From a virus: 36,851 nucleotides of DNA. The DNA lies in the IMG/VR virus record IMGVR_UViG_3300042868_007814, positions 1-36,851 of that record; one strand, 5' to 3'. The notes beneath the pieces are model-generated. The model made no database searches and was not told the DNA's origin. It was given only the letters and a program-made list of their open reading frames with translations. The translations under genes were made by a program, and so were the position numbers. Positions 8,766 through 36,851 of the stretch are shown piece after piece. Within the stretch, counting starts at the first letter, position 1, and each line of letters starts with the position of its first letter.

Positions 8766-8821
8766 CCGATATTATCGGCTTACCGTTATTGTGTCAAATT
8801 ATTTTTATCGGCAAGCCGGTA
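8766..8821. promoter_or_regulatory. Immunity-region operators plus a PR-like promoter for cro
   Basis: Sites: CCGATAtTATCGG at 8766-8778, TATCGGcttaCCGTTA at 8773-8788 and TATCGGcaagCCGGTA at 8806-8821. On the minus strand, TTGACA (8797-8792), a 17-nt spacer and TAATAT (8774-8769) end 6 nt before the cro ATG. Confidence 0.6.
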
Positions 8822-9559
8822 ATGGAAAACCCTAACCTTGTGCCCATGCGTACAGAATTTGGACAAAGGCTGTTTGAGGCTAGGACTCATGCGGGATTGA
8901 CACAAACCCAACTTTGCAAAATTGTTGGCATGTCACAAGGAACCTATGGTGAGCTTGAGCGTTCAGGATCGTCTTCGTCATACACCCCCGCAATTGCGAC
9001 AGCCTGCCAGGTAGATGTGAGTTGGCTGGCTTACGGTACAGGCGAAATGCTTAGGCCGAAAGTTAGCAGCTATTCAAACGACACTACACCAGCAGCGCAT
9101 TTTGTGCGCGAGCCTCAATCCATCTATCTAACAAACAACCCAGAATATCCAGCCATCCGGCGCGTTTCAATCAAAGCGCAGGCCGGTGTCAGTGGCTACG
9201 CAGTCGAGTACATGAACGACGATGGCCCGCCCATTGTGTTTCGCAAAGACTGGTACACAACCCATAATTTCCAGCCTGAAAAAATGCTCGCCCTGCGCGT
9301 CGGCGGTGAAAGCATGGTGCCCAACCTATACCCGGATGACCTGATAGTGGCAAATTCAGCGCAAACCGAGCCCAAGGATGGCATTGCCTTTGTGGTGGCC
9401 TACGAAGGCGAAGTGGTTGTTAAGCGCCTGATTCGTGACGCTGGGCAATGGTGGCTAAGTAGTGACAACCAAGACCAGCGGCGCTACCCGCGCAAAGTTT
9501 GCAATGGCGATACGCAGATCATTGGCGAGGTTGTGTATAGGCAGACTGAGCGAATTTAA
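8822..9559 (+). CDS. cI: cI-like repressor: XRE-type HTH plus S24 (LexA-like) autopeptidase domain
   Basis: HTH LTQTQLCKIVGMSQGTYGELE. C-terminal GGESMVP (Ser nucleophile) and VVKRL (Lys). Start uncertain: ATG 8822, ATG 8846, or the track's TTG 8789. Confidence 0.85.
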   Translation: MENPNLVPMRTEFGQRLFEARTHAGLTQTQLCKIVGMSQGTYGELERSGSSSSYTPAIATACQVDVSWLAYGTGEMLRPKVSSYSNDTTPAAHFVREPQSIYLTNNPEYPAIRRVSIKAQAGVSGYAVEYMNDDGPPIVFRKDWYTTHNFQPEKMLALRVGGESMVPNLYPDDLIVANSAQTEPKDGIAFVVAYEGEVVVKRLIRDAGQWWLSSDNQDQRRYPRKVCNGDTQIIGEVVYRQTERI

Positions 9560-12151: not shown

Positions 12152-13060
12152 ATGAGCAATGTAGCCACCCTTCCCCAAGCCAAACCCAGCTTTGACTTGT
12201 CCCCGCAGACCTTTGACCAGGCGCTGACGTTCAGCAAGTACCTGTCCGACAGTGACATGGTGCCCAAGGATTTCAAAGGCAAGCCCGGTAACTGCCTGAT
12301 TGCCATCCAATGGGGTGCTGAAATCGGTTTGAAGCCACTGCAAGCCCTGCAAAACCTTGCAATCATCAATGGCCGCCCAGCCCTTTGGGGTGATGCCGTT
12401 ATCGCTCTGGTGCGCAGCTCCAGCGCCTGCGAATACGTGATCGAGACACAGACTGCAACCGAGGCCACTTGCAAGGTGAAGCGCCGGGGTGAGCCCGAGC
12501 AGTCGCGTACTTTCAGCATGGCTGACGCTCAGGCCGCAGGGCTCAAGGGCAAGCAAGGCCCCTGGACGCAGTACCCCAAACGCATGATGCAGATGCGCGC
12601 CCGCGCCTTTGCGCTGCGTGACGTTTTCCCCGATGTGCTGCGCGGCCTGCCGGTGGCCGAGGAAATCATGGATTTACCCAAAGACATGGGCACAGTCGAG
12701 CCCGCGAGTAGTCCAGCCGCACCAGATGCATTGCTCGCCAGCGCTGAAACCGCCGCCGCGCTGGGCGTGAAGGAATATCAAACGTTTTGGGGTGGTGCCA
12801 CTAAGGATGATCGCAAGGCACTTGCTGCCCACCACGAACGCCTCAAAGAGGCGGCCATAGCTGCTGACAAAGCCCGCACGGTAGACACGCCACCTGCCGC
12901 CAAGACCTTTGATGAAGTCATGGCCATGCTGTGCGCGGCCACCAACATCGACCAGCTCTATGTGGCCGGGGAATGGATCACCGCCATGGAAAACCCAGTA
13001 GACCAAGGCGTACTGTCGGCCAAGTTTGAAGAACTCAAAGTTGTCTTGGGGGCCGAATGA
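12152..13060 (+). CDS. recT: RecT-family single-strand annealing protein
   Basis: 302 aa. The LIAIQWGAEIGLKPLQALQNLAIINGRPALWGD...MMQMRARAFALRD pattern is RecT-like. Paired with a YqaJ exonuclease through an ATGA overlap. Confidence 0.8.
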   Translation: MSNVATLPQAKPSFDLSPQTFDQALTFSKYLSDSDMVPKDFKGKPGNCLIAIQWGAEIGLKPLQALQNLAIINGRPALWGDAVIALVRSSSACEYVIETQTATEATCKVKRRGEPEQSRTFSMADAQAAGLKGKQGPWTQYPKRMMQMRARAFALRDVFPDVLRGLPVAEEIMDLPKDMGTVEPASSPAAPDALLASAETAAALGVKEYQTFWGGATKDDRKALAAHHERLKEAAIAADKARTVDTPPAAKTFDEVMAMLCAATNIDQLYVAGEWITAMENPVDQGVLSAKFEELKVVLGAE

Positions 13061-13857
13061 TCATCATAAATTGCGACCAAGGCTCACCAGAGTGGCACCA
13101 AGCTCGCGCCGGGTGCATCACGGCCAGCATGTTCAAAGTGGCTCGCCAGCGTGTGGGAATGCTCACCGAGCAGCAGCAGGCTTACGTCACAGCTATTCGC
13201 TCTGGAGCTGATGAAAAGGCTGCCATGCTGGCCGCTGGGTACAAGGCCAAGCCGCGCGCGGAGGTGATAGACAAGGCCATTGCCGGTGAGCCGGTTGGCG
13301 ATTGGTCTGACGCTGCCAAGAACTACGCCTTTCGCCTAGCCGTGGAGCGCATCAGCGGCACACCCCTAGACGAAGGTTTCCAGACATGGCAAATGAAACG
13401 CGGCCACGAACTGGAGCCCGAGGCCCGCCGCCGCCATGAGGAAGAGGCAGGTGTGATTGTCCAGCGCGCCGGGTTTGTCACCACAGATGACGGCTTGTTT
13501 GGCGGCTCTGCTGACGGCCTGATTGGTGACGACAGCGGCTCCGAATACAAGTGCCTTGTGTCACCCGAAGGACTGCGCGATGTGCTGCTGAATGCGGACA
13601 TTAGCGAATTCGTTGACCAGGTGCAGGGCTGCATGTGGCTAACCGCGCGCAAATCTTGGCATTTTGGTTTGTACTGCCCTGCCCTAGCCGCCGTTGGCTC
13701 TGATTTCACTTGGCGCGAAGTCCAGCGCGACGACGACTACATAGAAGCGCTGGAAGCTGATCTTGTGCAGTTCTCTGCGCTTGTGAATGACTACCAGGCC
13801 AAGCTATCGCGGTTCAACCAAAGCAGCAATGCCACTCAGTTGCTGCAAGCCGCCTAA
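13057..13857 (+). CDS. YqaJ-type (lambda Exo-like) recombination exonuclease
   Basis: N-terminal QGSPEWHQARAGCITASMF is the YqaJ signature. Confidence 0.85.
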   Translation: MIIINCDQGSPEWHQARAGCITASMFKVARQRVGMLTEQQQAYVTAIRSGADEKAAMLAAGYKAKPRAEVIDKAIAGEPVGDWSDAAKNYAFRLAVERISGTPLDEGFQTWQMKRGHELEPEARRRHEEEAGVIVQRAGFVTTDDGLFGGSADGLIGDDSGSEYKCLVSPEGLRDVLLNADISEFVDQVQGCMWLTARKSWHFGLYCPALAAVGSDFTWREVQRDDDYIEALEADLVQFSALVNDYQAKLSRFNQSSNATQLLQAA

Positions 13858-13891
13858 CCCATCACCCACCCCGCAACCCTGAAAGCAACCC

Positions 13892-14293
13892 ATGACCACA
13901 GAAACCACTATCGAGTCCATCCAGTTCACCAACCTACCAGCCCTTGGCGCTGAGTTCGAAGGCGGCAAATTCGCCGGAATTACCACCCAAAAGGATGGAA
14001 CCCATGTCGCCGTAATCTTGCTGCCAAACAAAGCGCAGGAACTGATTTGGAAGAAGGCTATGAACTGGGCTGAAAAGCTCAAAGCCGAACTCCCAAGCCG
14101 CCCCGTTGCCGCCCTTTTGTTTGCCAACGTCAAGAGCGAACTTGATCCCAAATGGCACTGGACCAACGAAACGCACCAGGACGATTCCTCTTCCGCCTGG
14201 GGTTGCTACTTCCACGACGGCCACCAGTACGACTACCACAAGAGCTACGACGGCTGTGCCGTCGTTGTCCGCTTGATTCCCCTCACCGCTTAA
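13892..14293 (+). CDS. DGR target protein 1 (133 aa), DUF1566/C-type-lectin-like, with VR1 at its C-terminus
   Basis: The C-terminus WHWTNETHQDDSSSAWGCYFHDGHQYDYHKSYDGCAVVVR aligns to the TR codon by codon. No signal peptide. Confidence 0.85.
   Translation: MTTETTIESIQFTNLPALGAEFEGGKFAGITTQKDGTHVAVILLPNKAQELIWKKAMNWAEKLKAELPSRPVAALLFANVKSELDPKWHWTNETHQDDSSSAWGCYFHDGHQYDYHKSYDGCAVVVRLIPLTA
14186..14272 (+). repeat. DGR variable repeat VR1 (87 bp)
   Basis: 77/87 identical to TR 15358-15444. All 10 differences lie at TR adenines. Confidence 0.9.
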
Positions 14294-14327
14294 TCCTTCA
14301 ATCCTTTCAACTCCACAGGAGCCAACC

Positions 14328-14786
14328 ATGACCGCAATAACCCTTGAAGCCATAGAGGCCAAACAAACCGAGCTGAGCAAGTTGATTGCCCAGTTCAAGG
14401 CAGAAGCCAATAAGCCCATCGTTTTGACGTTGAACGAAATCAGCATCGAACTGCGCCCCGGCGAGCACTACGCAGGCCCGGTGATCGATGAATCTGGCCG
14501 TATCACCCACCACCTGGTGCTGATGGCCCAGCGCCCCGCTGGCAAGCTGGAATGGCAAGCCGCCATGGACTGGGCCGAAGATGTAGGCGGCTCCCTGCCC
14601 AGCCGTCAAGAGCAGGCACTGCTCTTTGCAAACTGCAAGCCGCACCTCAAACCTGAGTGGCACTGGTCGAACCAAACCCATGAAAGCGATTCCTCTTACG
14701 CCTGGGATTGCCACTTCGGCGACGGCGACCAGAGCACCGGCCCCAAGAGCTACGACGGCTGTGCCGTCGTTGTCCGCAGAGTTTGA
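14328..14786 (+). CDS. DGR target protein 2 (152 aa), paralogue of target 1, with VR2 at its C-terminus
   Basis: AGGAG RBS. The C-terminus WHWSNQTHESDSSYAWDCHFGDGDQSTGPKSYDGCAVVVR aligns to the TR. No signal peptide. Confidence 0.85.
   Translation: MTAITLEAIEAKQTELSKLIAQFKAEANKPIVLTLNEISIELRPGEHYAGPVIDESGRITHHLVLMAQRPAGKLEWQAAMDWAEDVGGSLPSRQEQALLFANCKPHLKPEWHWSNQTHESDSSYAWDCHFGDGDQSTGPKSYDGCAVVVRRV
14691..14777 (+). repeat. DGR variable repeat VR2 (87 bp)
   Basis: 76/87 identical to the TR. All 11 differences lie at TR adenines. Confidence 0.9.
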
Positions 14787-14822
14787 TTCTTCAATCCTTT
14801 AATCCTTTGATCTGAGCCACCC

Positions 14823-15185
14823 ATGGCCCTTCACACCGACCTCCCGATCTACCGCACAGGGGTGCGCCTGCTTGGCCTCGCCGTTAAAGCTCAGGTGCAA
14901 ATGCCGCGCACCGTAAAACGTGCCCTGGGCGAAAAGATCACCCAGCACTGCGTTGACATGCTAGACCTGATGGCCTTGGCCAATGCCACCCAGCGCGACA
15001 TACGTTCCGGACACATTGACCAGCTGCTGACCAAGCAGCGCGCTATCACCGTGCTTTTGCGGGTTAGCCACGACAGCCGGTATATCTCGCCTAAGCTATG
15101 GGCAGATTCCATTGAGCTGCTGGGCAGTGTCGGCAAGCAGGCCGGTGGCTGGATCAAAAACGCCAACAGGGCGCCTGCCGTATGA
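14823..15185 (+). CDS. avd: Accessory variability determinant (Avd-like four-helix-bundle protein)
   Basis: 120 aa, basic and helical. The C-terminus ELLGSVGKQAGGWIKNANR parallels the Bordetella phage BPP-1 Avd C-terminus. It occupies the canonical position between the target genes and the TR. Confidence 0.75.
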   Translation: MALHTDLPIYRTGVRLLGLAVKAQVQMPRTVKRALGEKITQHCVDMLDLMALANATQRDIRSGHIDQLLTKQRAITVLLRVSHDSRYISPKLWADSIELLGSVGKQAGGWIKNANRAPAV

Positions 15186-15877
15186 CAGTCAAGGCTCTCA
15201 TACCCGCGCGCATAGTGAATCTGGTCGCGCCGCTGCCCCACAAAGGCACCGACATGCACACAACGGATACCGCTGCCAGCGCGCAGGCCCGGTCCGGTGC
15301 AGCTCCCATTCTGATCGGCCAAGGCCTTCGCAGTGGTGGCCTTACTAGCGCGAATGGTCCTCTTACGCCTGGAATTGCAACTTCAACAACGGCAACCAGA
15401 ACAACAACCACAAGAGCTACGACGGCTGTGCCGTCGTTGTCCGCAAATTCACACCTGTTTCAATTGCTGGTGCAAGCCTACCTCGATTGCCGACGCACCA
15501 AGCGCAACAGCGCCAGTGCGCTGGCGTTCGAAGCCAATGCCGAGCGCAACCTGTTCGATCTGCACGACGAGCTGGTAAGTGGCGACTATCAGCCTGGGCG
15601 CTCCATTTGCTTCGTTATCACCCACCCCAAGCCGCGCGAAGTATGGGCCGCAGAGTTTCGCGACCGCATCGTGCACCACTTGCTTTACAACGAAATCGCC
15701 CCGGCCTTTCACCGCCGTTTCGTGGCCGACAGTTGCGCATGCATCCCCGGGCGCGGCACGCTGTACGCCGCCAAGCGGCTGGAAGGCCAAGTGCGCAGCT
15801 ATGTGATCCGGCGTTGGTTCAACGCGCGGTTACATGCAGCTGCGCAGGCATTGGCTGGGAGAGCAACATCATGCTAA
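15182..15877 (+). pseudogene. DGR reverse transcriptase remnant (N-terminal third only)
   Basis: Residues 90-207 (LFQLLVQAYLDCRRTKRNS...YQPGRSICFVITHPKPREVWAAEFRDRIVHHLLYNEIAPAFHRRFVADSCACIPGRGT) match the N-terminal DGR-RT motifs. The ORF ends 24 codons later at 15877, with no catalytic-Asp or YxDD region. The ATG at 15182 overlaps the avd stop (ATGA), and the ORF reads through the TR. Confidence 0.75.
15358..15444 (+). repeat. DGR template repeat (TR)
   Basis: tcc tct tac gcc tgg aat tgc aac ttc aac aac ggc aac cag aac aac aac cac aag agc tac gac ggc tgt gcc gtc gtt gtc cgc. Seven AAC codons and one AAT codon in the VR reading frame. An in-frame TAG lies 10 nt upstream, so this frame is not translated. 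Confidence 0.9.
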
Positions 15878-17604
15878 CCCCCCAATTCAACCTGCCTATC
15901 CACGCCGAGCTGGTGGTAGACCTCTTTGCCGGCGGCGGCGGTGCCAGCACTGGCATTGAGCAAGCCATCGGCCGTGCAGTGGACATTGCCATCAACCATG
16001 ACCCCGAGGCCGTGGCGCTGCACCAGGCTAACCACCCGCAGACTCGCCACTTTGTGAGCGATGTGTTTGAGGTTGACCCCGTGACAGTAACCGCCGGTCA
16101 GCCAGTGGGCCTACTGTGGGCCAGCCCGGATTGCAAACATTTCAGCAAGGCCAAGGGAGGCAAGCCCGTGTCAAAGAAGATTCGCAGCTTGGCGGGCGTG
16201 GTGCTGAAATGGGTCAAGGCCCTTGAGCCATCTAACAGAAAGCCGCGAGTGATCTGCTTGGAAAATGTGGAGGAATTTCAGACTTGGGGGCCGCTAGTCA
16301 AGCGCAAAGTGGTCACCACCGACGAACTGGGCAATACAACTGAAACATGGGGCGAGTGGCCATGCCCGCAACGCAAGGGCCAAACATTCAAACGCTGGGT
16401 TAGCAGTTTGCGCAATCTAGGCTATGTGGTGGAGTGGCGCGAGCTGCGCGCCTGCGACTACGGTGCCCCCACCATCCGCAAGCGCCTGTTTCTGGTGGCG
16501 CGTTGTGACGGCCAGCCCATTGTGTGGCCACAGCCTACCCACGCTGCCCCTGACTCGCTGCAGATCAAGGCCAAGAAACTCAAGCCATGGCACACCGCGG
16601 CTGAGTGCATCGACTGGAGCATCCATGCGCCCAGCATTTTTGAGCGCAAAAAGCCATTGGCCGATGCCACCTGCAAGCGAATTGCCAAAGGTATACAGCG
16701 CTATGTGGTCGATGCGGCCGAGCCGTTTATTGTTCAATACCACAGTGCCAAGCGCGCCGGAGACGAGCGCACGGCACCACTGGACAACCCTCTGCCAACT
16801 CAAACCACAGAAAACCGGTTTGCATTGGCTGTACCGACGCTAATTCAAACCGGCTATGGTGAGCGTGAAGGCCAAGCACCGCGCGCGCTGGACATTGGCA
16901 AACCCATAGGCACACTGGTGGGTAGCCAAAAGCATGCGCTGGTGTCTGCATTCCTCGCAAAGAACTACACGGGCGTGGTCGGTTCCGATATGGCCGACCC
17001 GGTGGCTACCGTCACAACCGTTGACCATCACAGCCTTGTCACCGCCAACATGGTGCACCTAGGCCACGGCGAGGGTGCAGGCAGTACCAAGCGACGCAGC
17101 CACGGTATTCGTGACGTTCGGGAGCCAGTCAACACCATCACAGCCAGTGGAGCCGTGGGCGCACTGGTCACCAGCCACATGCTCAAGCTGCGCGGCACCA
17201 ATGTGGGCAGCCCAACCGACGAGCCACTACACACCATCAGCGCCCAAGGCACCCACCATGCCGAAGTGCGCGCCTTCCTCATCAAATATTACGGCACCGA
17301 CCAAGACCCGCGCCTAACCGAGCCCATGCACACCGTACCCACCAAAGACCGCTTTGGCCTGGTGACCGTGCACGGCGAGGAATACGCCATTGTGGACATT
17401 GGCCTGCGCATGCTTACCCCGCGTGAGCTCTACCGCGCCCAAGGCTTTCCAGAGAGCTACGAAATCGACACCGGGGGCGACGGTCGGGCCCTGACCAAGA
17501 CCGCCCAGGTGCGCATGTGTGGAAACAGCGTCTGCCCACCCATGAGTAAAGCCATTGTGGGTGCCAATTACACCGAGCCACAACAACAACGGAGAGCCGC
17601 ATGA
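15871..17604 (+). CDS. DNA (cytosine-5) methyltransferase
   Basis: Motif I DLFAGGGG, motif IV ASPDCKHFS, ENVEEF, and motif X GNSVCPP. GGGAGAG RBS before the ATG at 15871. The track ORF's upstream extension (15487-15870) is Arg-rich read-through. Confidence 0.9.
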   Translation: MLTPQFNLPIHAELVVDLFAGGGGASTGIEQAIGRAVDIAINHDPEAVALHQANHPQTRHFVSDVFEVDPVTVTAGQPVGLLWASPDCKHFSKAKGGKPVSKKIRSLAGVVLKWVKALEPSNRKPRVICLENVEEFQTWGPLVKRKVVTTDELGNTTETWGEWPCPQRKGQTFKRWVSSLRNLGYVVEWRELRACDYGAPTIRKRLFLVARCDGQPIVWPQPTHAAPDSLQIKAKKLKPWHTAAECIDWSIHAPSIFERKKPLADATCKRIAKGIQRYVVDAAEPFIVQYHSAKRAGDERTAPLDNPLPTQTTENRFALAVPTLIQTGYGEREGQAPRALDIGKPIGTLVGSQKHALVSAFLAKNYTGVVGSDMADPVATVTTVDHHSLVTANMVHLGHGEGAGSTKRRSHGIRDVREPVNTITASGAVGALVTSHMLKLRGTNVGSPTDEPLHTISAQGTHHAEVRAFLIKYYGTDQDPRLTEPMHTVPTKDRFGLVTVHGEEYAIVDIGLRMLTPRELYRAQGFPESYEIDTGGDGRALTKTAQVRMCGNSVCPPMSKAIVGANYTEPQQQRRAA

Positions 17605-18065
17605 AAACAGTCTACCGCCGCGCCGCCCACGCCAAGCGCATGCACCGCGACCCCATGGCCGCAGTTCACGTCCTTGCTGCGAACACCGAGCAACCCCGCG
17701 AAAACGCCGACCGCATCATGGTAGCGCTGCGCCTGACCTTTGAAAAACTCAAGATCGGCACGGGCGACTTAGAGCAATTCGACCGCCTAGCCGCCGCTGT
17801 CAACGTGGGCCTGATACGCGCCGAGCTGATAGACCCGCTGGCCGCTGAAACGATGGTGCGGGGTGTCGCAGCATTGATGAACTGCGCGGCCATCCATGAG
17901 CGCCACGGCAAGTTTGGCTTTACCGGGCCTGATCTGGTGGCCATGGGTGACGCTCTAGACCTTTACGAAGGCATTTTGAGGCTGTCCACGCCTAAGCAAA
18001 TGCTGGATGCGCTCGATATGGCGGCTGCGCGGATGCGTGGGCAAGTGCAGGGGGTGGCAGCGTGA
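17601..18065 (+). CDS. Hypothetical protein (154 aa) between the two methyltransferases
   Basis: ATGA overlap with the upstream gene. Ordinary helical composition. Confidence 0.55.
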   Translation: MKTVYRRAAHAKRMHRDPMAAVHVLAANTEQPRENADRIMVALRLTFEKLKIGTGDLEQFDRLAAAVNVGLIRAELIDPLAAETMVRGVAALMNCAAIHERHGKFGFTGPDLVAMGDALDLYEGILRLSTPKQMLDALDMAAARMRGQVQGVAA

Positions 18066-18562
18066 ACACTCAGCGCATCCTTGACCCATGCTGCGGCAGC
18101 CGCATGATGTGGTTTGACCGCCAAAACCCTGATGTGGTATTTGGTGACCAGCGCAGCGAGGTATTGACTGTCACCGACCGCTCGCACGGCAACGCCAGCG
18201 GCACACGCACCCTTCGCATTGAGCCCGATGCACTGCTGGATTTCCGAGCGTTGCCGTACCCGGATGGCACATTCAAACTGGTTGCGTTTGACCCGCCACA
18301 CCTCGTTCGCGCCGGCCCTCGCTCATGGTTGGCTGCCAAGTATGGAAAGCTGGGCACAGACTGGCGCGACGACCTGCGCCAAGGCTTCGCTGAGTGCTTT
18401 CGCGTGCTGGCCACCGATGGCGTTCTAGTGTTCAAGTGGAATGAAACCCAAGTCAAGCTGGGCGAGGTGCTTGCGCTTACGCCCGTGCAGCCGCTCTTTG
18501 GGCACCCGAGCGGGCGTAAGGGGCTTACCCACTGGATCGTGTTTATGAAAGGCGCGGCATGA
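18062..18562 (+). CDS. SAM-dependent DNA methyltransferase, DPPH motif (N6-adenine or N4-cytosine class)
   Basis: ILDPCCGS (SAM-binding-like) and FDPPH (catalytic motif IV). GTG start overlapping the upstream stop. Confidence 0.65.
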   Translation: MNTQRILDPCCGSRMMWFDRQNPDVVFGDQRSEVLTVTDRSHGNASGTRTLRIEPDALLDFRALPYPDGTFKLVAFDPPHLVRAGPRSWLAAKYGKLGTDWRDDLRQGFAECFRVLATDGVLVFKWNETQVKLGEVLALTPVQPLFGHPSGRKGLTHWIVFMKGAA

Positions 18563-18777
18563 CCGACCTCACCGATGCCGAGATAGACAGCATCTGCGAT
18601 GGCTACGTTCAAAACGCCGCGCGGATCCGCTACCTGCGCGCCATGGGCCTGACGGTGCACCGCAAACCCAACGGGCGGCCACTGGTCAACCGTGCACACT
18701 ATGATGCCGTCATGGGCAATGGGGCAAACCGCGCCATGCAAAAGACTGATTTTCAGCCAGTGTGGGGAGTCCACTAA
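18559..18777 (+). CDS. DUF4224-like small protein (possible excision/directionality factor)
   Basis: LTDAEIDSICDGYVQNAARIRYLRAMGLTVHRKPNGRPLVNRAHYD matches the DUF4224 pattern usually found just upstream of phage integrases. Confidence 0.7.
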   Translation: MTDLTDAEIDSICDGYVQNAARIRYLRAMGLTVHRKPNGRPLVNRAHYDAVMGNGANRAMQKTDFQPVWGVH

Positions 18778-19830
18778 ATGCGAAAAGACCGGGAGAGCGC
18801 CAAGGGCTTACTGCCACTTATGGAGGCTCGCCCGTGGGCTGATGGCAAGACCATCACCTACCGCTACCACCCTATCCAAGCCAAGCCCATCAACCTAGGC
18901 ACAGACCGCCTAGCGGCTATCCGCAAGGTGCTGGACTTGCTGGGCAATAACGAAGATCAAGGCACATTGAAATGGGTGTGGGAGCGGTACACAGACCCCG
19001 AAGCGCCCTCCCCGCGCTGGAAAAAGCTAGTGGACAGCACCAAGGCCGACTACCGGCAGGCGTGGAAAGAAATCGAAAAAACCTTCGGCAAGATGCCCGC
19101 CAACCGTATCGACTCCACGATGGTGGCCAGATATGTGCACGTCGAGCGCGCATCGGCCCCCAAACGGGCAAACACTGAAAAAGCTCTGCTATCCAACCTA
19201 TTCGGGCATGGCATTAAATTGGGCGTGTGTACCGTAAACGCAACAATCGGGGTGGAGCCGCACCAGTTGGAAGCTAGAACTGAGGCCCCTCAAGATGCGC
19301 TGCTGGCCAAATTCCTCACATGGTTGACCGAGCAAACGCCCCAGCGCCGCATCGTGGGCATGGCCGCTGAGTACGCCAGTCTGGCCGGCAATCGCAAATG
19401 CGAGTTCTTGCAGCTCACCTGGCCACAGGTAGACCGGGCAGCTGGCGTGATCCGCACCATACGCGCCAAACAGCGCGGCAAGAAGCGGGAGCAGGTAGTG
19501 GAGGTGGTGAGTATCAGCCCCGCGCTGGAGGCCCTTTTGGTGCGCCTGGAGACCATTCGTGAGTTGGACTGTCTCTACGTCTTCCCAACGCGCGACAACA
19601 ACCACTACACCGATTCGGGATTCAAGGCGCTATGGCAGCGCTGCATGCTGGAGGCGATCAAGCAAAAAGTGCTGACGGCTGAGACGCGGTTCACATTCCA
19701 TGACCTGCGGGCCTTCTATGCCACCAAGCATAAGAAGGTGACTGGAGCCCTGCCGGATTTGCATAAAAACCCGGAGACGACTGCCCGGGTGTATGACCGA
19801 AACGTGGAAGTTTTCAGGTCTTCAAACTAG
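18778..19830 (+). CDS. int: Tyrosine recombinase (phage integrase)
   Basis: 350 aa. AGNRKCEF (Arg box), FTFHDLRAFYATKH, and the C-terminal ARVYDR with the catalytic Tyr. Confidence 0.9.
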   Translation: MRKDRESAKGLLPLMEARPWADGKTITYRYHPIQAKPINLGTDRLAAIRKVLDLLGNNEDQGTLKWVWERYTDPEAPSPRWKKLVDSTKADYRQAWKEIEKTFGKMPANRIDSTMVARYVHVERASAPKRANTEKALLSNLFGHGIKLGVCTVNATIGVEPHQLEARTEAPQDALLAKFLTWLTEQTPQRRIVGMAAEYASLAGNRKCEFLQLTWPQVDRAAGVIRTIRAKQRGKKREQVVEVVSISPALEALLVRLETIRELDCLYVFPTRDNNHYTDSGFKALWQRCMLEAIKQKVLTAETRFTFHDLRAFYATKHKKVTGALPDLHKNPETTARVYDRNVEVFRSSN

Positions 19831-19935
19831 CTCCCGTTTCCCAGCGTGGGAAATTTGGCGGGAATTTGCACTGTGTGTATTTGCAGTGCGCTACACAAAA
19901 CAGAGCGCCATCACTAAGGATGGCGCTGTATTAGA

Positions 19936-19983
19936 TGGGGTGGCTGATGGGGCTCGAACCCACGACAACAGGAATCACAATCC
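19936..19983 (-). other. attP core: 3' 48 nt of a tRNA-His(GUG) gene (anticodon loop to CCA end), not a full tRNA
   Basis: The reverse complement GGATTGTGATTCCTGTTGTCGTGGGTTCGAGCCCCATCAGCCACCCCA matches the 3' half of proteobacterial tRNA-His. No D-arm or 5' acceptor strand lies beyond 19983. Confidence 0.8.
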
Positions 19984-21488: not shown

Positions 21489-21863
21489 TTAGAACTTGAA
21501 GGAAATCGAAAAAGCCGCGGTAGTCGGGCTAATGCCTTGAACTTCGGGGATAGTCACCAAGTGAGCTTCGATGGGGCCAAGCGGTACGCTCAGGGCCAAG
21601 CCCGCAAAGGGCACCGCTGGGTATTTATAGCCGGTCACCATTCCCGCGAAGACGCCCGCCTTGACCGGCCCTAGGTGAACCGGCTGCCAAGCGGCACCCA
21701 CATAGGCGCTCTGCTTGCGCACGCTGTTGAAATAGGTGCCAGCAGCCAGCCGCCAATCACCATCCACAGGACACAGCAAACCAACACCAGGCGTGTCGTT
21801 GTTGTACCCCGGCGAGGCATGGTAGGCCGCTACGTGTAGCTGTACTGCGCAGTCAGAAATCAT
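21489..21863 (-). CDS. Outer-membrane beta-barrel-like protein lacking a signal peptide (124 aa)
   Basis: Alternating-hydrophobic strands, aromatic girdle residues and a C-terminal ...FSISFKF. Start taken at the ATG at 21863, which forms an ATGA overlap with the tail-fibre stop. Confidence 0.4.
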   Translation of the reverse strand: MISDCAVQLHVAAYHASPGYNNDTPGVGLLCPVDGDWRLAAGTYFNSVRKQSAYVGAAWQPVHLGPVKAGVFAGMVTGYKYPAVPFAGLALSVPLGPIEAHLVTIPEVQGISPTTAAFSISFKF

Positions 21864-23344
21864 AGATCTGCACTCGCTGCAATCCATGCGGGTATCAATC
21901 CAGAGGCCTGCAAGTAAGCTGCGTTACCAGCGACTAATCCACTGGCAACAACCGCCTGCAGCGAAACATCTAAGCTAGACGATGTAAGTGCCAATATGTT
22001 GGTCACCGTCCGACCTCCCGCCGCTGCATCGCTTACATAGAATGCAGAAGGGCCTGAGAACGTAATAGCAGGCACCGCACGCAACTGTACTGGGAGCCTT
22101 ATCGAACCCAAAGCCTGTGTAGTTGTGGATGCCTGCAAAAGCCCAATAAATGCAAATGATGGGGTCACCCATCGGTAATAGTACCTACAAGCCAAAGCAA
22201 ATTCGGTGGCGTATGGTCGGATTTCAAATGCCGATGCATCAGTGCCTTGTTCTAGTTGCACGTTCCCAATAGTCCAAGTACCTGACGTTTGAGCGCCAAC
22301 ACTAAATACAAGTTGCAAACCAGTGGTAGCTGCTGCTGGCACACTCACTTGGGCGCTGTAGCGAGACACTGTAGAGTTCACAGTGAATGTCCCGGTGGCT
22401 ATTTGCGTAACTGTGGGCGCAGCCAAGGTGCCGAAGGTGTCGTCCGTGGTGGTGGCCCGAAACAATGTCCACGTCACAGTCGTAAGCAGTGAATTGGCAA
22501 GGTCTGCCGAAATGGTTACTGTCTGGCTATTTAAGTCGTAGGTATCACGAGCCTCTAGTCGGGTGCCGAAGCCGATTGCAGTAACCGAGGCCGCACCGGT
22601 GAATCTATAACGTCTTTGCGCCTGTGCACTACCTGCTACGACTTGACCTGTTACGTTGGCCCCAGTGCAATAGGCGTACCAACGGTCTGCGGTGTAGGCC
22701 AGGGCCGCACCAGCCGTAATGGTTTGTGCCGCGTATGCGTTGCGCTGGTCAACCTGAAAGCCGCCGTTGTGAATGCGATTTCTAAACCCTACTCCAATGT
22801 TGCCAAGCCCCATCGCTGCCCGAGCCGCAGCCAATGTCGCCCCAGCAACCACTGGCGCCATAGCCAAGGACACAGGCGCACTTGCACCCCCCGCGTAGTT
22901 TTGCAGCGCGTTACCTGCCGCGTTCCAGCCCAGCAGCGCATTGGCTACCGGCTCCGGGACAACTGTGCTCGCTGTTGATCCGGCTGCCAGCGTCAACGCT
23001 AACGCATTCAAAAATTGTGAGTCCTGCAGCATCATCACAATGCGGTCCAAGTCCGCATTAATTACGGGCGCTTGAAAGTCCCCAAGCTGTTGGAAATCAG
23101 AGGAGCGTGTCTTGGGCACGCTGCGCTGCAGCTCGATGATTTCCCCGCCTACCATTGGTGTACCAAATGTCACGTCAGCGCTTGCAGCGCCGATACCGGA
23201 CACCGTGAACCCGGTGGTAACTACTGCGCTGTTGACTTTGACTACAAGATCACTGGCAAGGAACAGCCGAAAATCGGTTGTGAAAAGCGTAGCTGCTGGG
23301 GCTGCCGTGTATTTTTTGTAGGGGGTTTGAGCGGTAACTGACAT
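21860..23344 (-). CDS. Tail fibre protein with a T7 gp17-like N-terminal attachment domain
   Basis: N-terminus YKKYTAAPAATLFTTDFRLFLASDLVVKVNS...IELQRSVPKTRSSDFQQLGDFQAPVINADLDRIVMMLQD is the podovirus tail-fibre N-terminal pattern. The C-terminal part is Thr/Ala/Gly-rich and beta-like. Confidence 0.7.
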   Translation of the reverse strand: MSVTAQTPYKKYTAAPAATLFTTDFRLFLASDLVVKVNSAVVTTGFTVSGIGAASADVTFGTPMVGGEIIELQRSVPKTRSSDFQQLGDFQAPVINADLDRIVMMLQDSQFLNALALTLAAGSTASTVVPEPVANALLGWNAAGNALQNYAGGASAPVSLAMAPVVAGATLAAARAAMGLGNIGVGFRNRIHNGGFQVDQRNAYAAQTITAGAALAYTADRWYAYCTGANVTGQVVAGSAQAQRRYRFTGAASVTAIGFGTRLEARDTYDLNSQTVTISADLANSLLTTVTWTLFRATTTDDTFGTLAAPTVTQIATGTFTVNSTVSRYSAQVSVPAAATTGLQLVFSVGAQTSGTWTIGNVQLEQGTDASAFEIRPYATEFALACRYYYRWVTPSFAFIGLLQASTTTQALGSIRLPVQLRAVPAITFSGPSAFYVSDAAAGGRTVTNILALTSSSLDVSLQAVVASGLVAGNAAYLQASGLIPAWIAASADL

Positions 23345-23383
23345 GGTGGCCTTTGCAATGGTTTGCGCGGGCCACCCAAAGGG

Positions 23384-24973
23384 CTAAGAGGTTTCGAACA
23401 CTATCTCGTGAACGCCCGCTGATGGACGCCAAGGATGCTGCTGATGCTCGGTCGGTTTCCCGACTATTTGCCCAATACGCACCGGTGTGTCGGCAATGGC
23501 ACCAGCGCCAGAATCAATGAAGTCGTCGGGCTGGTTTGTGCTGAGCGGGTTGAAGTCCTTCATCTGGTCCCATGTAGGCCCATCCAATACAGACACATGA
23601 GCCCACAGCACACCCATGGATAGCGGCGGCTCGAATGCGTCAAGGATGCGCTTTTGCTTGTTCACGGTGCTGTGATCGTCCACCACCGCGCAGCCGGTGC
23701 CCGCCAAGAACTTGCGCAGCCGTGGCGGTATAAAACCACCCGGCCCGTTCGTCTCCACTTTGACGCTGGGTATTTGGTACTCCAAAACCAACTCTTTGGC
23801 CCGCTTGCATTGGTCGTCTAGATCGCCGATCAAGGCCTCGGCAAACTGCCAGTACAGATTGCCGGATGCGTCGGTAAGCACCAGGCTAAAAACTGATGCA
23901 TCGGATTTGATCTTTCCAAGCGAGCAATCCCAGCGCGCGCACGCGCCCACAATCCGGGTCTTGCCAAGCCACATGATGGCCTCTCGGTTGGAGTATTGAA
24001 CGCGGGGCTTGGTGTCGTAGGGGACCATGCGCGCAGGGTCTAGGCGAACCTCGCCCACTGGTTTACTGTGTAACTGGTACTGAGAATCCCACTCATTGAT
24101 GGTGCGGCACTTCTTACGGCGGGTTTCCATTTCCTCCAAGGTGAATCGTTCAGGCCATGCGCTGCCTGCGTAAAAGTCCACCAACCCGCCCGGGGCTTTA
24201 TGCAACACCACTGTAGTGCCGCGCAGCGTATAGTCCTTACCTGGCTTGAGCGCCTTGGTAAATTTACCGATTCCGGCCAGTACCATTTCGGGTACAAAGT
24301 CCAGCACATATTCACGCTCTCGCGCTTCCTCTACCCGTTGTTCATTCGCAAACATAGGAATGGTCAGGCAATCAGCCCCCATGGCCTCCATTTCGTCGTA
24401 CAGGCTATCGTGGGTGTGAGGTGTCCCGATGTACAGCTGCCGCGCACCGGGCACCATACAGTGCGTTTGCTCGCCCAGTCGGTAGCGCATTTTCTCCCGG
24501 GCTTCGGGGTTTTGTATGTTCCTTGGTACTTCCACATCATCGTTTTGCGCTTCATCGCACCGGCTTGATGTGATGTTGGTGGTAATGCCAGCGGCTTGCA
24601 TTGATGGGTTCCGTTCATCGTTGGCACCTGGTACCCACCAAAAAGAAGCCTCTCCGCGAATGGCTTGGAACTGGTCGCGCGTGAGCGGGTGGCGCATGAG
24701 CACCGCCTTAGTGTCCCGGCTGGTTTTGTAGGCCGTCCTGTCTTGGTCGCCTTGGTGCAGTATTCGGTAAGCCGGGTCTTGGTAAAACCTCCAGGCGTTG
24801 TACACGGCCAGAATAGTGGACTTACCGAATCCACGAAAGCAGCGCAATACCGCAAGAATGCCACGATGCTCCAGCCAGTCAACGGCCTGCCAGTGAATGT
24901 CCGGCACAGTCCACCGCCGTTCCTCGGCCCAAATGGCAAAGAACGTGGCAAGGTTTACCTTTTTACTTGCCAT
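23384..24973 (-). CDS. terL: Terminase large subunit
   Basis: 529 aa. Walker A-like CFRGFGKST and acidic nuclease-type motifs in the C-terminal half. Preceded by a small-subunit-sized gene. Confidence 0.8.
   Translation of the reverse strand: MASKKVNLATFFAIWAEERRWTVPDIHWQAVDWLEHRGILAVLRCFRGFGKSTILAVYNAWRFYQDPAYRILHQGDQDRTAYKTSRDTKAVLMRHPLTRDQFQAIRGEASFWWVPGANDERNPSMQAAGITTNITSSRCDEAQNDDVEVPRNIQNPEAREKMRYRLGEQTHCMVPGARQLYIGTPHTHDSLYDEMEAMGADCLTIPMFANEQRVEEAREREYVLDFVPEMVLAGIGKFTKALKPGKDYTLRGTTVVLHKAPGGLVDFYAGSAWPERFTLEEMETRRKKCRTINEWDSQYQLHSKPVGEVRLDPARMVPYDTKPRVQYSNREAIMWLGKTRIVGACARWDCSLGKIKSDASVFSLVLTDASGNLYWQFAEALIGDLDDQCKRAKELVLEYQIPSVKVETNGPGGFIPPRLRKFLAGTGCAVVDDHSTVNKQKRILDAFEPPLSMGVLWAHVSVLDGPTWDQMKDFNPLSTNQPDDFIDSGAGAIADTPVRIGQIVGKPTEHQQHPWRPSAGVHEIVFETS
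23449..23465 (-). repeat. 17-nt hairpin motif copy 3 (inside the terL 3' coding region)
   Basis: Exact CGGTCGGTTTCCCGACT. Encodes (I)VGKPTE of TerL. Confidence 0.9.
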
Positions 24974-25331
24974 TCACTTTTGCATCAAACGTGCGTTTTT
25001 TGGCTTTGTCAAGCGCCCGAGCCACCGCCGCCGCCGCGCGCCGTTCCGCTTCGTTTATTTTCTTGTCCATGTCCGCATCTTTGGATGCCCCCTCTGCATC
25101 ATCACCGCCCGGTGCGCTGTGAGACTTCACCAAGTCCAAGGTGTAACGCAGCACGCCGCCCGTGGCCATAGCGTTTTTCTTGCACCAGTAAGAATCCCCG
25201 CGCTCTTGCTGCGTCATGTCCGCAGGTGTAGCCCCACCACCCGGCCATTCAACTGGGTCAGCCTCCACCAAAAACCGATCAGCCAATTTTTCGGAAAGGT
25301 CATTCAATCTTGCAATTTGGTCTGGTCGCAT
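24963..25331 (-). CDS. terS: Putative terminase small subunit (122 aa)
   Basis: AGGAG lies 7 nt upstream of the ATG at 25331. Overlaps the terL start by 11 nt. The upstream part of the track ORF (to 25601) overlaps the preceding gene and is rejected. Confidence 0.5.
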   Translation of the reverse strand: MRPDQIARLNDLSEKLADRFLVEADPVEWPGGGATPADMTQQERGDSYWCKKNAMATGGVLRYTLDLVKSHSAPGGDDAEGASKDADMDKKINEAERRAAAAVARALDKAKKRTFDAKVNGK

Positions 25332-25333
25332 GG

Positions 25334-27859: not shown

Positions 27860-28037
27860 ATTCTTTCTATTCTGGTTTTACATTGCTTGCATGCTTGGGA
27901 TGGTCTTCTTGATCAGCTGCGGCGTGTTTGGCAGCGTCAAGACGGCGTGGCGGTACATGCGCACGCTGGTGAAGCACATCGCCTTTTTGGCAGCCGCTGG
28001 CTGTGTAGTGGCGTTCATAGTCACATCGAGCCTGTAG
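27852..28037 (+). CDS. Antisense-oriented small 2-TM membrane protein (61 aa)
   Basis: MDKFFLFWFYIACMLGMVFLISCGVFGSVKTAWRYMRTLVKHIAFLAAAGCVVAFIVTSSL. It fills the 161-nt gap between two minus-strand genes, and the minus strand has no ORF there. Confidence 0.45.
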   Translation: MDKFFLFWFYIACMLGMVFLISCGVFGSVKTAWRYMRTLVKHIAFLAAAGCVVAFIVTSSL

Positions 28038-32273: not shown

Positions 32274-32786
32274 TTAATCCCCCGATCCGCTGTTGCCAGA
32301 GGTATATCTACTCATTGGGTTGCCTGCTGGCTTACCCGCTGGGGATTTCCACCCGCCTGCCGCACTCATGCCCGTGCTAATTGCAGACATGTAGCCAGCG
32401 GTACGCGCGTTCTCACCCGCTTTTTTGGCTGCCTCACCTTGGGCTACCAATCTGCGCGCGTTGTTCTTGCCTGACAGTATGGCGGTCAGTGCGTCTTGTT
32501 CTGCGCCTTGGTCGATCTGGTTATTGATCACCTCGGCCGTGCCGTCATTCACCGAAAAGCCACTGGCTGCGGTTGCTGCGGTAGCGGCTGATTTTTGCGC
32601 CTGGCCAGCCTTGCGAATTTGGCGGGCCTGTAGTTCGGCCTCCCCCTTTGCGGCGTCCGCATCGGCCTGCTTTTGAGCGTTTTCATAGTTGCCCATGGCG
32701 GCGGCTTGCTCACCTTGGGTAATCGAACTAGCCATAGATATAGCCGTCCCTCCCATCAGCATTGCTGCTGTCAAACTGATGCACAT
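32274..32786 (-). CDS. Small internal virion protein (170 aa, gp14-position) with an N-terminal TM segment
   Basis: Start at the ATG at 32786 (TGAAATG junction with the GNAT stop). MCISLTAAMLMGGTAISMASSI is TM-like. The track ORF's extension to 33029 overlaps the GNAT gene. Confidence 0.5.
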   Translation of the reverse strand: MCISLTAAMLMGGTAISMASSITQGEQAAAMGNYENAQKQADADAAKGEAELQARQIRKAGQAQKSAATAATAASGFSVNDGTAEVINNQIDQGAEQDALTAILSGKNNARRLVAQGEAAKKAGENARTAGYMSAISTGMSAAGGWKSPAGKPAGNPMSRYTSGNSGSGD

Positions 32787-32787
32787 T

Positions 32788-33231
32788 TCAAAACTCCTTT
32801 GCGTGAAGCGTGGCCACGGTCGTGTAACCAAGATGGGCAAGCAGTTGCCCCGTTTTCTCAAGCTGTAAGCCGGTGTTGATTCCGAGCTCGGCGGCGTGTG
32901 CGCCCTGACTTTTGGCCCAGTCTTCATAACCTTTGACAAGGCGCGCGGCCAGCATGCCGCCCCGGTGCTCAGGGTGAATGAATAGACCAAAGTCCTGCCC
33001 CACCTTGCCGGTGGAAAACCACAGCTCAATCACAGCCGCAGCAATCGCACCGATCACCTTGCCGTTTTTTTCAGCCACCAGAATCAGCCCAGCACCTTCA
33101 ATAAGGCGGGTAAAAATGAGTTCCACTTTCTCGCGGGAGTGCGGAATGTCTTTGAAACGGCTCTCCATGTGCATCACTTGGGCTAGGTCAAGAATGCGGG
33201 GGAGGTCTTCTAAGGTTGCGTGACGGATCAT
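32788..33231 (-). CDS. GNAT-family N-acetyltransferase
   Basis: 147 aa. Acetyl-CoA motif A FIHPEHRGGMLAARLV and an overall GNAT layout. Confidence 0.8.
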   Translation of the reverse strand: MIRHATLEDLPRILDLAQVMHMESRFKDIPHSREKVELIFTRLIEGAGLILVAEKNGKVIGAIAAAVIELWFSTGKVGQDFGLFIHPEHRGGMLAARLVKGYEDWAKSQGAHAAELGINTGLQLEKTGQLLAHLGYTTVATLHAKEF

Positions 33232-33238
33232 GTAGTCC

Positions 33239-35398: not shown

Positions 35399-35399
35399 A

Positions 35400-36578: not shown

Positions 36579-36851
36579 TTACTGGAAGTCGATCTGTACG
36601 ACTTTCTTATCGTCTTGACGGCCTGCACCGTAAGACGCCGCCATAGACACTTGCCAAGCGTCCTTCTTGTCACCCCGGCGGGTAACGTTGCCCTCTTCGT
36701 AGCCCTTGCCGAAGTGGATACCAGACTTGGCGTAGGCCACAGCCGAGAACACAGCACCGGCCTTGTTGAAGGCTTGGTACGGAATCCAGCGGAAGCCCAT
36801 CCAGGTGCCCTTAAGCGTGCCGGACTGCAACATCTGGCCAGCTAAGAAGTC
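36579..36851 (-). CDS. Major capsid protein, 3' part (continues from 724..1 across the circular join)
   Basis: Track ORF ...GTLKGTWMGFRWIPYQAFNKAGAVFSAVAYAKSGIHFGKGYEEG...VQIDFQ. In frame with the 5' part. 36725-36851 duplicates 1-127. Confidence 0.75.
   Translation of the reverse strand, partial: DFLAGQMLQSGTLKGTWMGFRWIPYQAFNKAGAVFSAVAYAKSGIHFGKGYEEGNVTRRGDKKDAWQVSMAASYGAGRQDDKKVVQIDFQ

Follow-up and report, generated by a model that had tools for sequence, protein, structure and literature searches.

The phage genome analyzed here carries a genuine diversity-generating retroelement (DGR) of the Avd/DUF1566-target class at positions 13892-15877. In the account that we consider, as a whole, highly probable, this DGR was formerly intact, lost its reverse transcriptase (RT) through a deletion at a short microhomology, and now carries variable repeats (VRs) that are most likely frozen. 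The window, by which we mean the entire IMG/VR record IMGVR_UViG_3300042868_007814 of 36,851 nucleotides, represents a complete circular phage genome of ~36.7 kb with an exact 127-bp terminal overlap. It encodes phage structural and lysogeny genes. The phage is temperate and podovirus-like, and its host is probably a bacterium of the order Burkholderiales. The DGR occupies the early region, which contains the genes for lysogeny and recombination. A megablast search with positions 13000-18000 against GenBank phages yielded short methylase matches only and no related phage. Comparison with related loci, denoted by L numbers below, identified ~30 intact Burkholderiales relatives that share the layout of two targets, Avd, RT-15 RNA, and template repeat (TR), followed by a full-length RT, and that show adenine-only VR mismatches. 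All features of the cassette described below are on the plus strand.

The TR (15358-15444), VR1 (14186-14272), and VR2 (14691-14777), each 87 bp long, align without gaps. The TR consists of 24 A, 29 C, 18 G, and 16 T, and when read in the VR frame, it includes AAC seven times and AAT once. Ten positions in 9 codons distinguish VR1 from the TR, and 11 positions, likewise in 9 codons, distinguish VR2 from it; all 10 and all 11 of these mismatches fall on TR adenines, and the 63 non-A positions of the TR are unchanged in both VRs (0/126 non-A comparisons differ). The two VRs differ from each other at 13 positions, each of them a TR adenine. An earlier note on this DNA, made from the letters alone, had given the same coordinates, codon content, and adenine-confined mismatches, and our alignment reproduced them exactly. 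Each VR occupies, in frame, the 3' end of an open reading frame (ORF), VR1 that of 13892-14293 and VR2 that of 14328-14786, and its similarity to the TR stops sharply on both sides of the repeat. The VR2 repeat may be 3 nt longer, with one additional A-to-G change.

The two target genes, T1 and T2, are tandem paralogs, as the earlier note had also recognized, and are 50% identical, so similar 3' ends would be expected in any case. Conceivably, then, the repeats could be products of ordinary paralogy or gene conversion, with the adenine bias arising by coincidence. The hypergeometric probability that all differences would be confined to adenines amounts to 4.9e-7 (VR1) and 8.9e-8 (VR2), with a combined p of ~4e-14; furthermore, the third copy does not code for a target and lies between avd and the RT remnant, and the identical design recurs in the ~30 relatives. 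With 21/21 differences on A, ordinary paralogy or gene conversion is ruled out as the source of the repeats, and the probability that we assign to a coincidental bias is vanishingly small. The cassette thus contains a TR/VR pair with adenine-confined differences, one of the features by which DGRs are defined.

Both targets are located in the early region, between the YqaJ gene and avd. T1 (13892-14293; 133 aa) is a small DUF1566/C-type lectin-like protein, and T2 (14328-14786; 152 aa) consists of an N-terminal helix followed by a C-type lectin-like domain; a signal peptide and a lipobox are absent from both. Comparison with the Pfam Lcl_C/DUF1566 profile (PF07603) produced scores of 19.8 bits for T1 and 24.8 bits (E=2.8e-5) for T2, below the gathering threshold of 34.9, so the assignment of the targets to the DUF1566/C-type lectin families, with which the earlier note had suggested comparing them, did not reach the family cutoff but was supported at the level of the fold. 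Among the 682 homologs of T2, many at 60-75% identity have a precomputed PF07603 match, and T1 homologs occupy the same position in ~25 related DGR loci. In the AlphaFold model of T2 (pLDDT 81.3), VR2 forms low-confidence loops spanning residues 119-143. The top match of this model in the PDB was the C-terminal domain of Legionella Lcl (8q4e; probability 1.00, E 5.7e-3, TM 0.48/0.55); dozens of C-type lectin-like domains ranked behind it, and none of the matches reached E <= 1e-3. It is this fold search that supports the Lcl_C-type assignment; when PDB sequences were searched with the target profile, nothing significant emerged, the sole match being HbP1/8q4e at E 0.33. Together, the ORF frame and the T2 model place the VR C-terminally in a target of the C-type lectin fold, as is typical of DGRs.

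A short motif, TTCAATCCTTT, is found downstream of each VR, at 14297-14307 (25 nt past VR1) and at 14790-14800 (13 nt past VR2); these are its two matches in the window, compared to 0.03 expected. The relatives contain approximately one copy of the motif per VR and none after the TR, and its conserved form, TTCARTCCTTT, lies 13-25 nt past each VR. The GC-rich 3' ends of the repeats are identical in the VR and the TR, and divergence starts immediately after them. Given this distribution, TTCAATCCTTT is a candidate IMH-type element that might mark the VR as the recipient. A 4-bp hairpin within this post-VR motif was considered and found unconvincing.

The avd gene (14823-15185) is intact and encodes a protein of 120 aa. 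As predicted from the sequence alone, profile searches identified it as the DGR accessory protein: it scored 42.7 bits against Pfam bAvd (cutoff 40) and matched the PHROG family phrog_3206, "Avd protein of DGR," at 1.5e-21, with a score against NCBIfam DivGenRetAVD of 43.6 bits, which is under the equivalog cutoff of 80. The protein is 91-92% identical to the Avd proteins of L001 and L002. The spacer between avd and the TR is filled by a 192-nt structured RNA of the Rfam family RT-15 (RF03018; 15169-15360) that the earlier note had overlooked. The match covers the covariance model in full (positions 1-192 of 192). Its score of 158.7 bits exceeds the gathering score of 82, which establishes membership in the family, and is typical of intact relatives. 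In all 16 of the related loci tested, RT-15 occurs at the same place and finishes on the first bases of the TR. No match to Rfam RT-10 was detected in the window.

Downstream of the TR, which ends at 15444, RT homology begins at 15446, and the same gap of 1-2 nt is present in the ~30 relatives. The remnant (15446-15799) corresponds to residues 1-118 of a DGR RT and includes motifs 1-2 only; intact DGR RTs are ~360 aa in size, and the 27 full-length relatives range from 356 to 379 aa. The stub is 75-84% identical to residues 1-118 of these 27 RTs and matches the PHROG family "Reverse transcriptase" at 9e-43, a degree of similarity that clearly points to descent from a DGR RT. Both tblastn with 21 full-length RTs and an unfiltered six-frame profile search confined the RT match to profile positions 1-120 of 361, from 15446 to ~15805, and neither revealed further RT sequence elsewhere in the circular genome. 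The stub did not match Pfam RVT_1, for which the full-length relative L002, used as a positive control, scored 53.3 bits. Motif A (KCDLANFF), the xGxxxSQ motif (IGNLSSQ), and the YxDD motif (YVDD), which are present in 26-27 of the 27 relatives, are all missing from the stub. The cassette therefore lacks a DGR-clade RT with catalytic motifs, and the part of the earlier note that treated the RT as a component of an intact DGR has to be abandoned. An autonomous element with a functional RT, in the order target-target-avd-TR-RT, would agree with the gene order, with the TR/VR signature, and with the source annotation of the 231-aa ORF as "RNA-directed DNA polymerase," but this ORF consists of RT residues 1-118 and a foreign tail without the catalytic motifs, in a circular genome without any other RT. 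Unless the assemblies are wrong, these results refute an intact DGR, which we regard as very improbable.

The foreign tail (15800-15877), which continues the reading frame of the RT stub, comprises the last 25 codons and the stop codon of another gene. It corresponds to the C-terminal ends of ~80-aa proteins with two transmembrane segments encoded in L038-L052, L002, and L035, the intact representatives of which belong to Pfam DUF7220 (PF23858) with scores of 97-101 bits. The piece in the window covers profile positions 55-66 of 70 and scores 15.8 bits against a cutoff of 28, so that it is a fragment short of full-domain membership, and no intact DUF7220 copy was found in the window. The fused RT::DUF7220 ORF remains open, and its stop codon overlaps the ATG of a C5 DNA methylase gene at 15871. 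At the junction (15791-15802), protein and DNA alignments revealed a microhomology of 9-12 bp, GTGCGCAGC(TAT), which encodes V-R-S(-Y) and is common to the RT and DUF7220 genes. An arrangement that might have preceded the deletion, with the RT followed by DUF7220 and the methylase, was not recovered: DUF7220 is upstream of the methylase in 0 of 80 methylase-bearing IMG/VR loci. In the closest methylase locus, L059 (86% protein identity), homology to the window begins exactly at the methylase ATG, and in L011, L021, L093, and L061, an intact RT adjoins the methylase. The possibility that the breakpoint is a recurrent hotspot was rejected: short RT-N-terminal proteins end at scattered profile positions, from ~88 to 250, and most of these are contig-end or frameshift fragments, the N-terminal query itself favoring stubs.

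Because short repeats can cause mis-joins in metagenomic assemblies and the junction sits within a 9-12 bp microhomology, the truncation might be an assembly artifact, with the real phage encoding a full RT. The JGI contig(s) and two Logan assemblies, made from different runs, contain the identical junction with 100% identity across it, a repeat of this size is far below assembler k-mer sizes, and the contig closes on itself through its terminal overlap; such an artifact is accordingly hard to credit. L054 is identical to the window across 4547 bp that include the junction, and L053 is identical from 15494 onward, with the same junction. In L053, the same RT stub appears to be joined to another TR allele, and the switch falls inside the conserved 5' stretch of the RT; unless this contig is chimeric, the truncated form would thus have persisted and recombined to some extent.

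At its intact stage, a complex of RT and Avd would have reverse-transcribed a transcript containing avd, the RT-15 RNA, and the TR, misincorporating nucleotides at template adenines. The resulting cDNA would have replaced the 3' ends of T1 and T2 independently, giving rise to the 10 and 11 adenine-only differences. These reverse transcription and homing steps are modeled on the BPP-1 paradigm, and it is their sequence signature that the window displays. A later deletion or illegitimate recombination at the microhomology would have joined RT codon 118 to the DUF7220 tail. This event eliminated about two thirds of the RT gene and, with it, the complete catalytic core. With no other RT in the genome, the cassette cannot diversify its targets by itself, and the element is now non-autonomous. 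Since the RT is reduced to a dead stub, the VRs record past mutagenic retrohoming, and VR1 and VR2 have most likely been frozen since the last homing events. The RT loss would be recent on the point-mutation scale, which would explain the intact state of T1, T2, Avd, RT-15, and the TR.

Avd, the TR, RT-15, VR1, and VR2 show zero decay, and this lack of decay, along with the open fused ORF, fits a very recent loss and continued use in trans equally well. The second of these possibilities is a non-autonomous but active element, the T1 and T2 genes of which are still diversified by an RT supplied in trans from a related DGR in a co-resident prophage or co-infecting phage of the same lineage. Every cis component is in place along with Avd, and close relatives of this DGR, with an identity of 75-84% in the RT and of up to 92% in Avd, are widespread among the prophages of Burkholderiales. 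Moreover, in three other RT-defective cassettes (L055-L057), the VR/TR pairs are still adenine-only and RT-15 is intact. Joint production of the TR and the RT is not needed, since some DGRs transcribe the two from different strands (PMC5758913). The pairing of the L053 stub with a second TR allele hints at recombination with some other DGR of the same cells, but L053 could be a de Bruijn-graph chimera, and clean VR/TR pairs are predicted by recent loss alone, given that ~170 non-A sites are slow to gain one substitution. In addition, the protein collection holds zero VR variants of T1 or T2: VR-only variants were sought in the 90% protein clusters, where each target is the single member, and exact-protein look-ups of Avd and T2 matched the source contig(s) alone. 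On balance, we consider ongoing diversification in trans unlikely. A broader and quite speculative proposal, to which we assign a low probability, is that the RT-less cassettes of this lineage, composed of targets, Avd, RT-15, and TR, are maintained as non-autonomous "satellite" DGRs that borrow the RT of co-resident related prophages, with RT-15 recruiting the RT-Avd complex and priming cDNA synthesis. If so, RT-15, upstream of the TR, would do what the spacer downstream of the TR does in BPP-1.

Under the preferred reading, that is, recent RT loss with frozen VRs, this locus is a clean example of the death of a phage DGR, by a single microhomology deletion in a complete genome with the remaining parts pristine. 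It cautions that a TR/VR signature alone is no proof of an active DGR and that the annotation "RNA-directed DNA polymerase" on such a stub is not to be trusted. The recurrence in this lineage of RT-defective cassettes with intact cis elements makes trans-complementation between co-resident DGRs a testable proposition.

The class of this DGR, its two-target layout, and the RT loss all have precedents; as a DGR, the element is ordinary. The BPP-1 DGR (mtd-avd-TR-brt), to which the earlier note had likened it, similarly resides in a temperate short-tailed phage and shares the order target(s)-avd-TR-RT, the presence of Avd, adenine-specific TR-to-VR differences, and a VR at the C-terminus of a C-type lectin-fold protein. 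Thus, the resemblance holds for the gene order, but it breaks down in several other respects. The RT here is a dead 118-aa stub. The target in BPP-1 is the tail fiber protein Mtd, whereas the targets here are two small non-structural proteins of the early region; the tail fiber gene of this phage (21860-23344, minus strand) lacks a VR, so no receptor-binding tail fiber target of the tropism-switching type is present. The second target, viewed in the earlier note as a departure from the paradigm, turned out to be the norm among the ~30 relatives, and two targets are found in ~13% of DGRs (PMC5758913). In BPP-1, a spacer of ~140 nt downstream of the TR (Sp, Rfam RT-10) is where Avd binds and priming takes place (PMC6182149). 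Here, the BPP-1-type arrangement at the 3' side of the TR is absent: the TR abuts the RT without such a spacer, and the structured RT-15 is upstream of the TR. A GC-rich hairpin is not evident past the VRs, where the TTCARTCCTTT motif is found instead, and the 5' part of the RT coding sequence gave no signal of a BPP-1-like RNA element, its first 40 codons having a synonymous codon identity of 0.57, compared with 0.55 overall.

The DGRs of the DUF1566/CLec2 class (category "d" of Wu et al. 2018), including that of Legionella pneumophila LdtA, resemble this element in the DUF1566/Lcl_C-like target domain and in the B1 architecture (avd-TR-RT), and short DUF1566-only targets occur in approximately half of this class (PMC5758913). 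Unlike LdtA, which is a surface lipoprotein, neither T1 nor T2 carries the corresponding export signals, and unlike this class, the element here is phage-borne and has no working RT. DGRs with an RT inactivated by a nonsense mutation, IS insertion, or frameshift were described in 2012 (DiGReF, PMC3521204); as here, the RT is destroyed and the TR/VR pair is adenine-only, which was interpreted as very recent inactivation. The present case differs in that a microhomology deletion produced an in-frame RT::DUF7220 fusion and in that the phage genome concerned is complete and devoid of any other RT. Finally, the RNA in the window agrees with Rfam RT-15 (RF03018; Weinberg et al. 2017) in its full-length match, well over the gathering score, and in adjoining an RT gene. 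The original description gave RT-15 no function or element type and tied RT-10 alone to DGRs (PMC5737381), whereas in the window and in all 16 relatives tested, RT-15 constitutes the spacer between avd and the TR of a DGR. This orphan Rfam motif is now placed in a widespread lineage of Burkholderiales prophage DGRs, and its position suggests an RNA architecture unlike that of the only biochemically dissected DGR.

The first 127 bases of the window (positions 1-127) are repeated exactly at 36725-36851; with this overlap the window closes into a circle of about 36,724 bp, the complete genome of a temperate podovirus-like phage. The plus strand encodes a CI-like repressor (8789-9559), RecT, a YqaJ exonuclease, an integrase (18778-19830) and, directly downstream of the remnant of a diversity-generating retroelement (DGR), two DNA methyltransferases: a C5 cytosine methylase of 577 aa (15871-17604) and a smaller enzyme (166 aa, phrog_954; 18062-18562). 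Structural genes occupy the minus strand (21860 to 35416), which encodes terminase, head-tail adaptor, internal virion proteins, tail proteins and a tail fibre.

The DGR repeats, all on the plus strand, are an 87-bp template repeat (TR, 15358-15444) and two variable repeats of the same length, VR1 (14186-14272) and VR2 (14691-14777), which lie in frame at the 3' ends of the tandem ORFs T1 (13892-14293) and T2 (14328-14786) and align with the TR without gaps. The TR contains 24 adenines and 63 other bases. All 10 differences between VR1 and the TR, and all 11 between VR2 and the TR, fall on TR adenines, with none among the 63 non-A sites (chance probabilities of 4.9e-7 and 8.9e-8, respectively); VR1 and VR2 differ from each other at 13 positions, exclusively in TR-adenine columns. 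The similarity breaks off abruptly at either repeat end, and chance paralogy is effectively excluded. Read in the VR frame, seven of the TR codons are AAC and one is AAT. On re-counting, the repeat coordinates, the gapless copies, the adenine-only mismatches and these codons all proved to be exactly as an earlier note on this DNA had them.

T1 and T2 are paralogs, 50% identical, with one VR each, in agreement with the same note. As to its suggestion of a DUF1566 or lectin-type target, both proteins matched Pfam Lcl_C/DUF1566 below threshold. The top PDB match of an AlphaFold model of T2 (43 homologs, pLDDT 81.3) was the Legionella Lcl C-terminal domain (8q4e, probability 1.00), followed by dozens of C-type lectin-like domains, with zero PDB matches at E <= 1e-3. 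The model consists of an N-terminal helix and a compact domain, and VR2 maps to C-terminal loops of low confidence. No signal peptide was found in T1 or T2. The T2 helix (model m524b4b921322) is 22 residues long, confidently predicted and missing from T1; many of the fold matches are "neck + CRD" fragments of collectins (SP-A, SP-D, MBP), which trimerise via a comparable helix, so the modeled T2 may oligomerise through its N-terminal helix. The next ORF (14823-15185, plus strand) is avd, as previously proposed, given its matches to Pfam bAvd (42.7 bits, cutoff 40) and to the PHROG "Avd protein of DGR" (1.5e-21); its score is under the stricter NCBIfam equivalog cutoff.

The cassette ends in a 231-aa ORF (15182-15877) annotated as "RNA-directed DNA polymerase". 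No Pfam RVT_1 match was detected in this ORF, although the reverse transcriptase (RT) of the related locus L002, used as a positive control, scored 53.3 bits. When the post-TR portion of the ORF was searched against GTDB genomes, residues 1 to ~124 matched RT genes, and a second class of matches linked residues ~104-141 to non-RT sequence. In 20 relatives, the RT extends over 356-379 residues from the aligned start. In tblastn searches of the whole window with the relatives' RTs, only 15446 to ~15817 matched, with nothing further at E < 0.01, and an unfiltered profile of 27 full-length RTs matched the six-frame translation only over profile positions 1-120 of 361. Motif A (KCDLANFF, 26 of 27 full-length relatives), the DGR-specific SQ motif (IGNLSSQ, 27/27) and YVDD (27/27) are all absent from the window. 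An RT catalytic domain is thus missing from the entire replicon. The earlier reading of an intact, autonomous DGR is effectively excluded by an RT stub without catalytic motifs and no RT elsewhere on the replicon; the DGR itself is genuine, with two targets, Avd and a TR, but its RT is non-functional. The ATG of the 231-aa ORF overlaps the avd stop, and the frame runs through the avd-TR spacer and the TR (15182-15445). This upstream frame is not conserved as open in relatives, and in L005 it opens just 18 nt before the RT homology; the genuine RT of this lineage probably begins at the 3' end of the TR, perhaps with a non-ATG codon.

The last 25 codons of the ORF (YVIRRWFNARLHAAAQALAGRATSC) correspond to the C-terminus of a family of ~80-aa proteins with two TM segments, Pfam DUF7220 (97-101 bits), of which the window retains profile positions 55-66 of 70; no intact DUF7220 copy was found in the window. 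The tripeptide V-R-S occurs both in the RT ("...RLEGQVRS") and in DUF7220 ("...ISxVRS|YVIRRWF"), and 9-12 bp of the junction GTGCGCAGCTAT (15791-15802) are found in the L002 RT gene (GTGCGCAGCTAT) as well as in the L039 and L041 genes for DUF7220. Together, the tripeptide and the shared DNA identify the event as a microhomology-mediated deletion or an illegitimate recombination, which fused RT residues 1-118 in frame with the DUF7220 C-terminus. The RT thereby lost its catalytic core, and the cassette its autonomy. The junction recurs in two Logan contigs, L054 (SRR27421862), which is 100% identical to window 15416-19962, and L053 (SRR27420588), which is identical from 15494 on for ~4.2 kb, and JGI contigs show the same gene string, so that an assembly artefact is effectively excluded. 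In L053:1-120, corresponding to window 15374-15493, the TR 3' end and the beginning of the RT are those of another, L008-like allele (85% identical). The fused ORF ends on a stop codon that overlaps the C5 methylase ATG (15871); in L011, L021, L093 and L061, a homologous methylase comes immediately or shortly after an intact RT. In L059, the closest IMG/VR relative, similarity to the window sets in precisely with the methylase start codon, which suggests a methylase module that moves as a unit.

A search with the N-terminal RT portion, a query biased to such stubs, yielded three further RT-defective loci on long contigs, independent cases in other prophages. L055 (4537-5952; chromosome of Chromobacterium haemolyticum) has an RT broken into two pieces and a truncated Avd; in L056 (3344-5420), an RT stub to ~residue 88 precedes unrelated genes; in L057/L058 (L057: 3678-5408), an internal deletion of residues ~112-335 leaves RT residues 1-111 and the last ~25, upstream of a ParB-like gene. 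The breakpoints differ between the defective RTs, so a breakpoint hotspot was rejected. L055, L056 and L057 share the same early-region setting, between recombination/replication genes and the integrase. In all three loci, the RT-15 RNA is intact, and the VR/TR pairs have 12-17 adenine mismatches and no non-adenine ones. Clean repeats are expected after recent loss and are therefore not in themselves a sign of activity in trans; Schillinger et al. (2012, PMC3521204) had earlier described DGRs whose RT is inactivated while the repeats are intact, and likewise took the inactivation to be "very recent". That a related RT still serves the window cassette in trans is unlikely, even though all cis parts and Avd are intact, related DGRs are abundant and L053 seems to link the same stub with a different TR allele, with the switch in the conserved RT 5' stretch; L053 arose either by natural recombination between two DGR alleles or through chimeric assembly. 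Very probably, VR1 and VR2 record independent past mutagenic homing, the RT-core deletion ended the cassette's autonomy, and both VRs are now most likely frozen. One of the two main merits of the locus is that it documents well how a DGR decays, here in a phage genome that is complete.

The other main merit of the locus is the placement of the RT-15 RNA in the avd-TR spacer of a DGR lineage. RT-15 (Rfam RF03018; 15169-15360, plus strand) is the only Rfam match in the window above the gathering score (158.7 bits against 82, full model covered) and fills the spacer from the last avd codons to the first TR bases; it takes up this same position, with the same end on the TR, in all 16 related loci that were examined. 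The element did not figure in the earlier note. In Weinberg et al. (2017, PMC5737381), RT-1 to RT-19 are motifs located close to RT genes, of which RT-10 alone was tied to a DGR, as the TR-brt spacer of Bordetella phage BPP-1; a literature search found no role assigned to RT-15. Two plus-strand copies of a post-VR motif (TTCAATCCTTT, consensus TTCARTCCTTT) start 25 nt past the VR1 end (14297-14307) and 13 nt past the VR2 end (14790-14800), and are the window's only two matches, where 0.03 would be expected at random. This second lineage-specific cis feature is often present as a tandem ATCCTT-like pair; relatives have roughly one copy for each VR and none downstream of the TR. It may mark the recipient site in the manner of an IMH.

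About 30 loci, mostly from Burkholderiales (including Hydrogenophaga, Acidovorax, Curvibacter, Methylibium and Pandoraea), share the layout target-target-Avd-RT-15-TR-RT, each with a single TR ending 1-2 nt ahead of the RT homology. All relatives except L035 have two or more VRs (three targets in L005 and L018), so two targets are the norm in this lineage; among all DGRs, two targets occur in ~13%, and short targets made up of DUF1566 alone form a class of their own (PMC5758913). VR mismatches in the relatives are confined to adenines, the sole exception being one mismatch in L035, which has one VR and an RT frame interrupted after 130 residues. The window cassette adds an RT-defective case to a known DGR class. 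It differs from BPP-1, where the target is the tail fibre, in that its targets are small proteins encoded in the early region. The ~140-nt spacer downstream of the BPP-1 TR provides Avd binding and the priming adenosine (PMC6182149). Whereas this spacer (Sp/RT-10) lies downstream of the TR, the only detectable conserved structured RNA of the present lineage, RT-15, lies upstream, and the 27 RT genes show no hidden RNA constraint in their 5' codons (synonymous-site value of 0.57 in the first 40 codons against 0.55 overall). By analogy, RT-15 could be the counterpart of the BPP-1 downstream spacer in Avd binding and priming.
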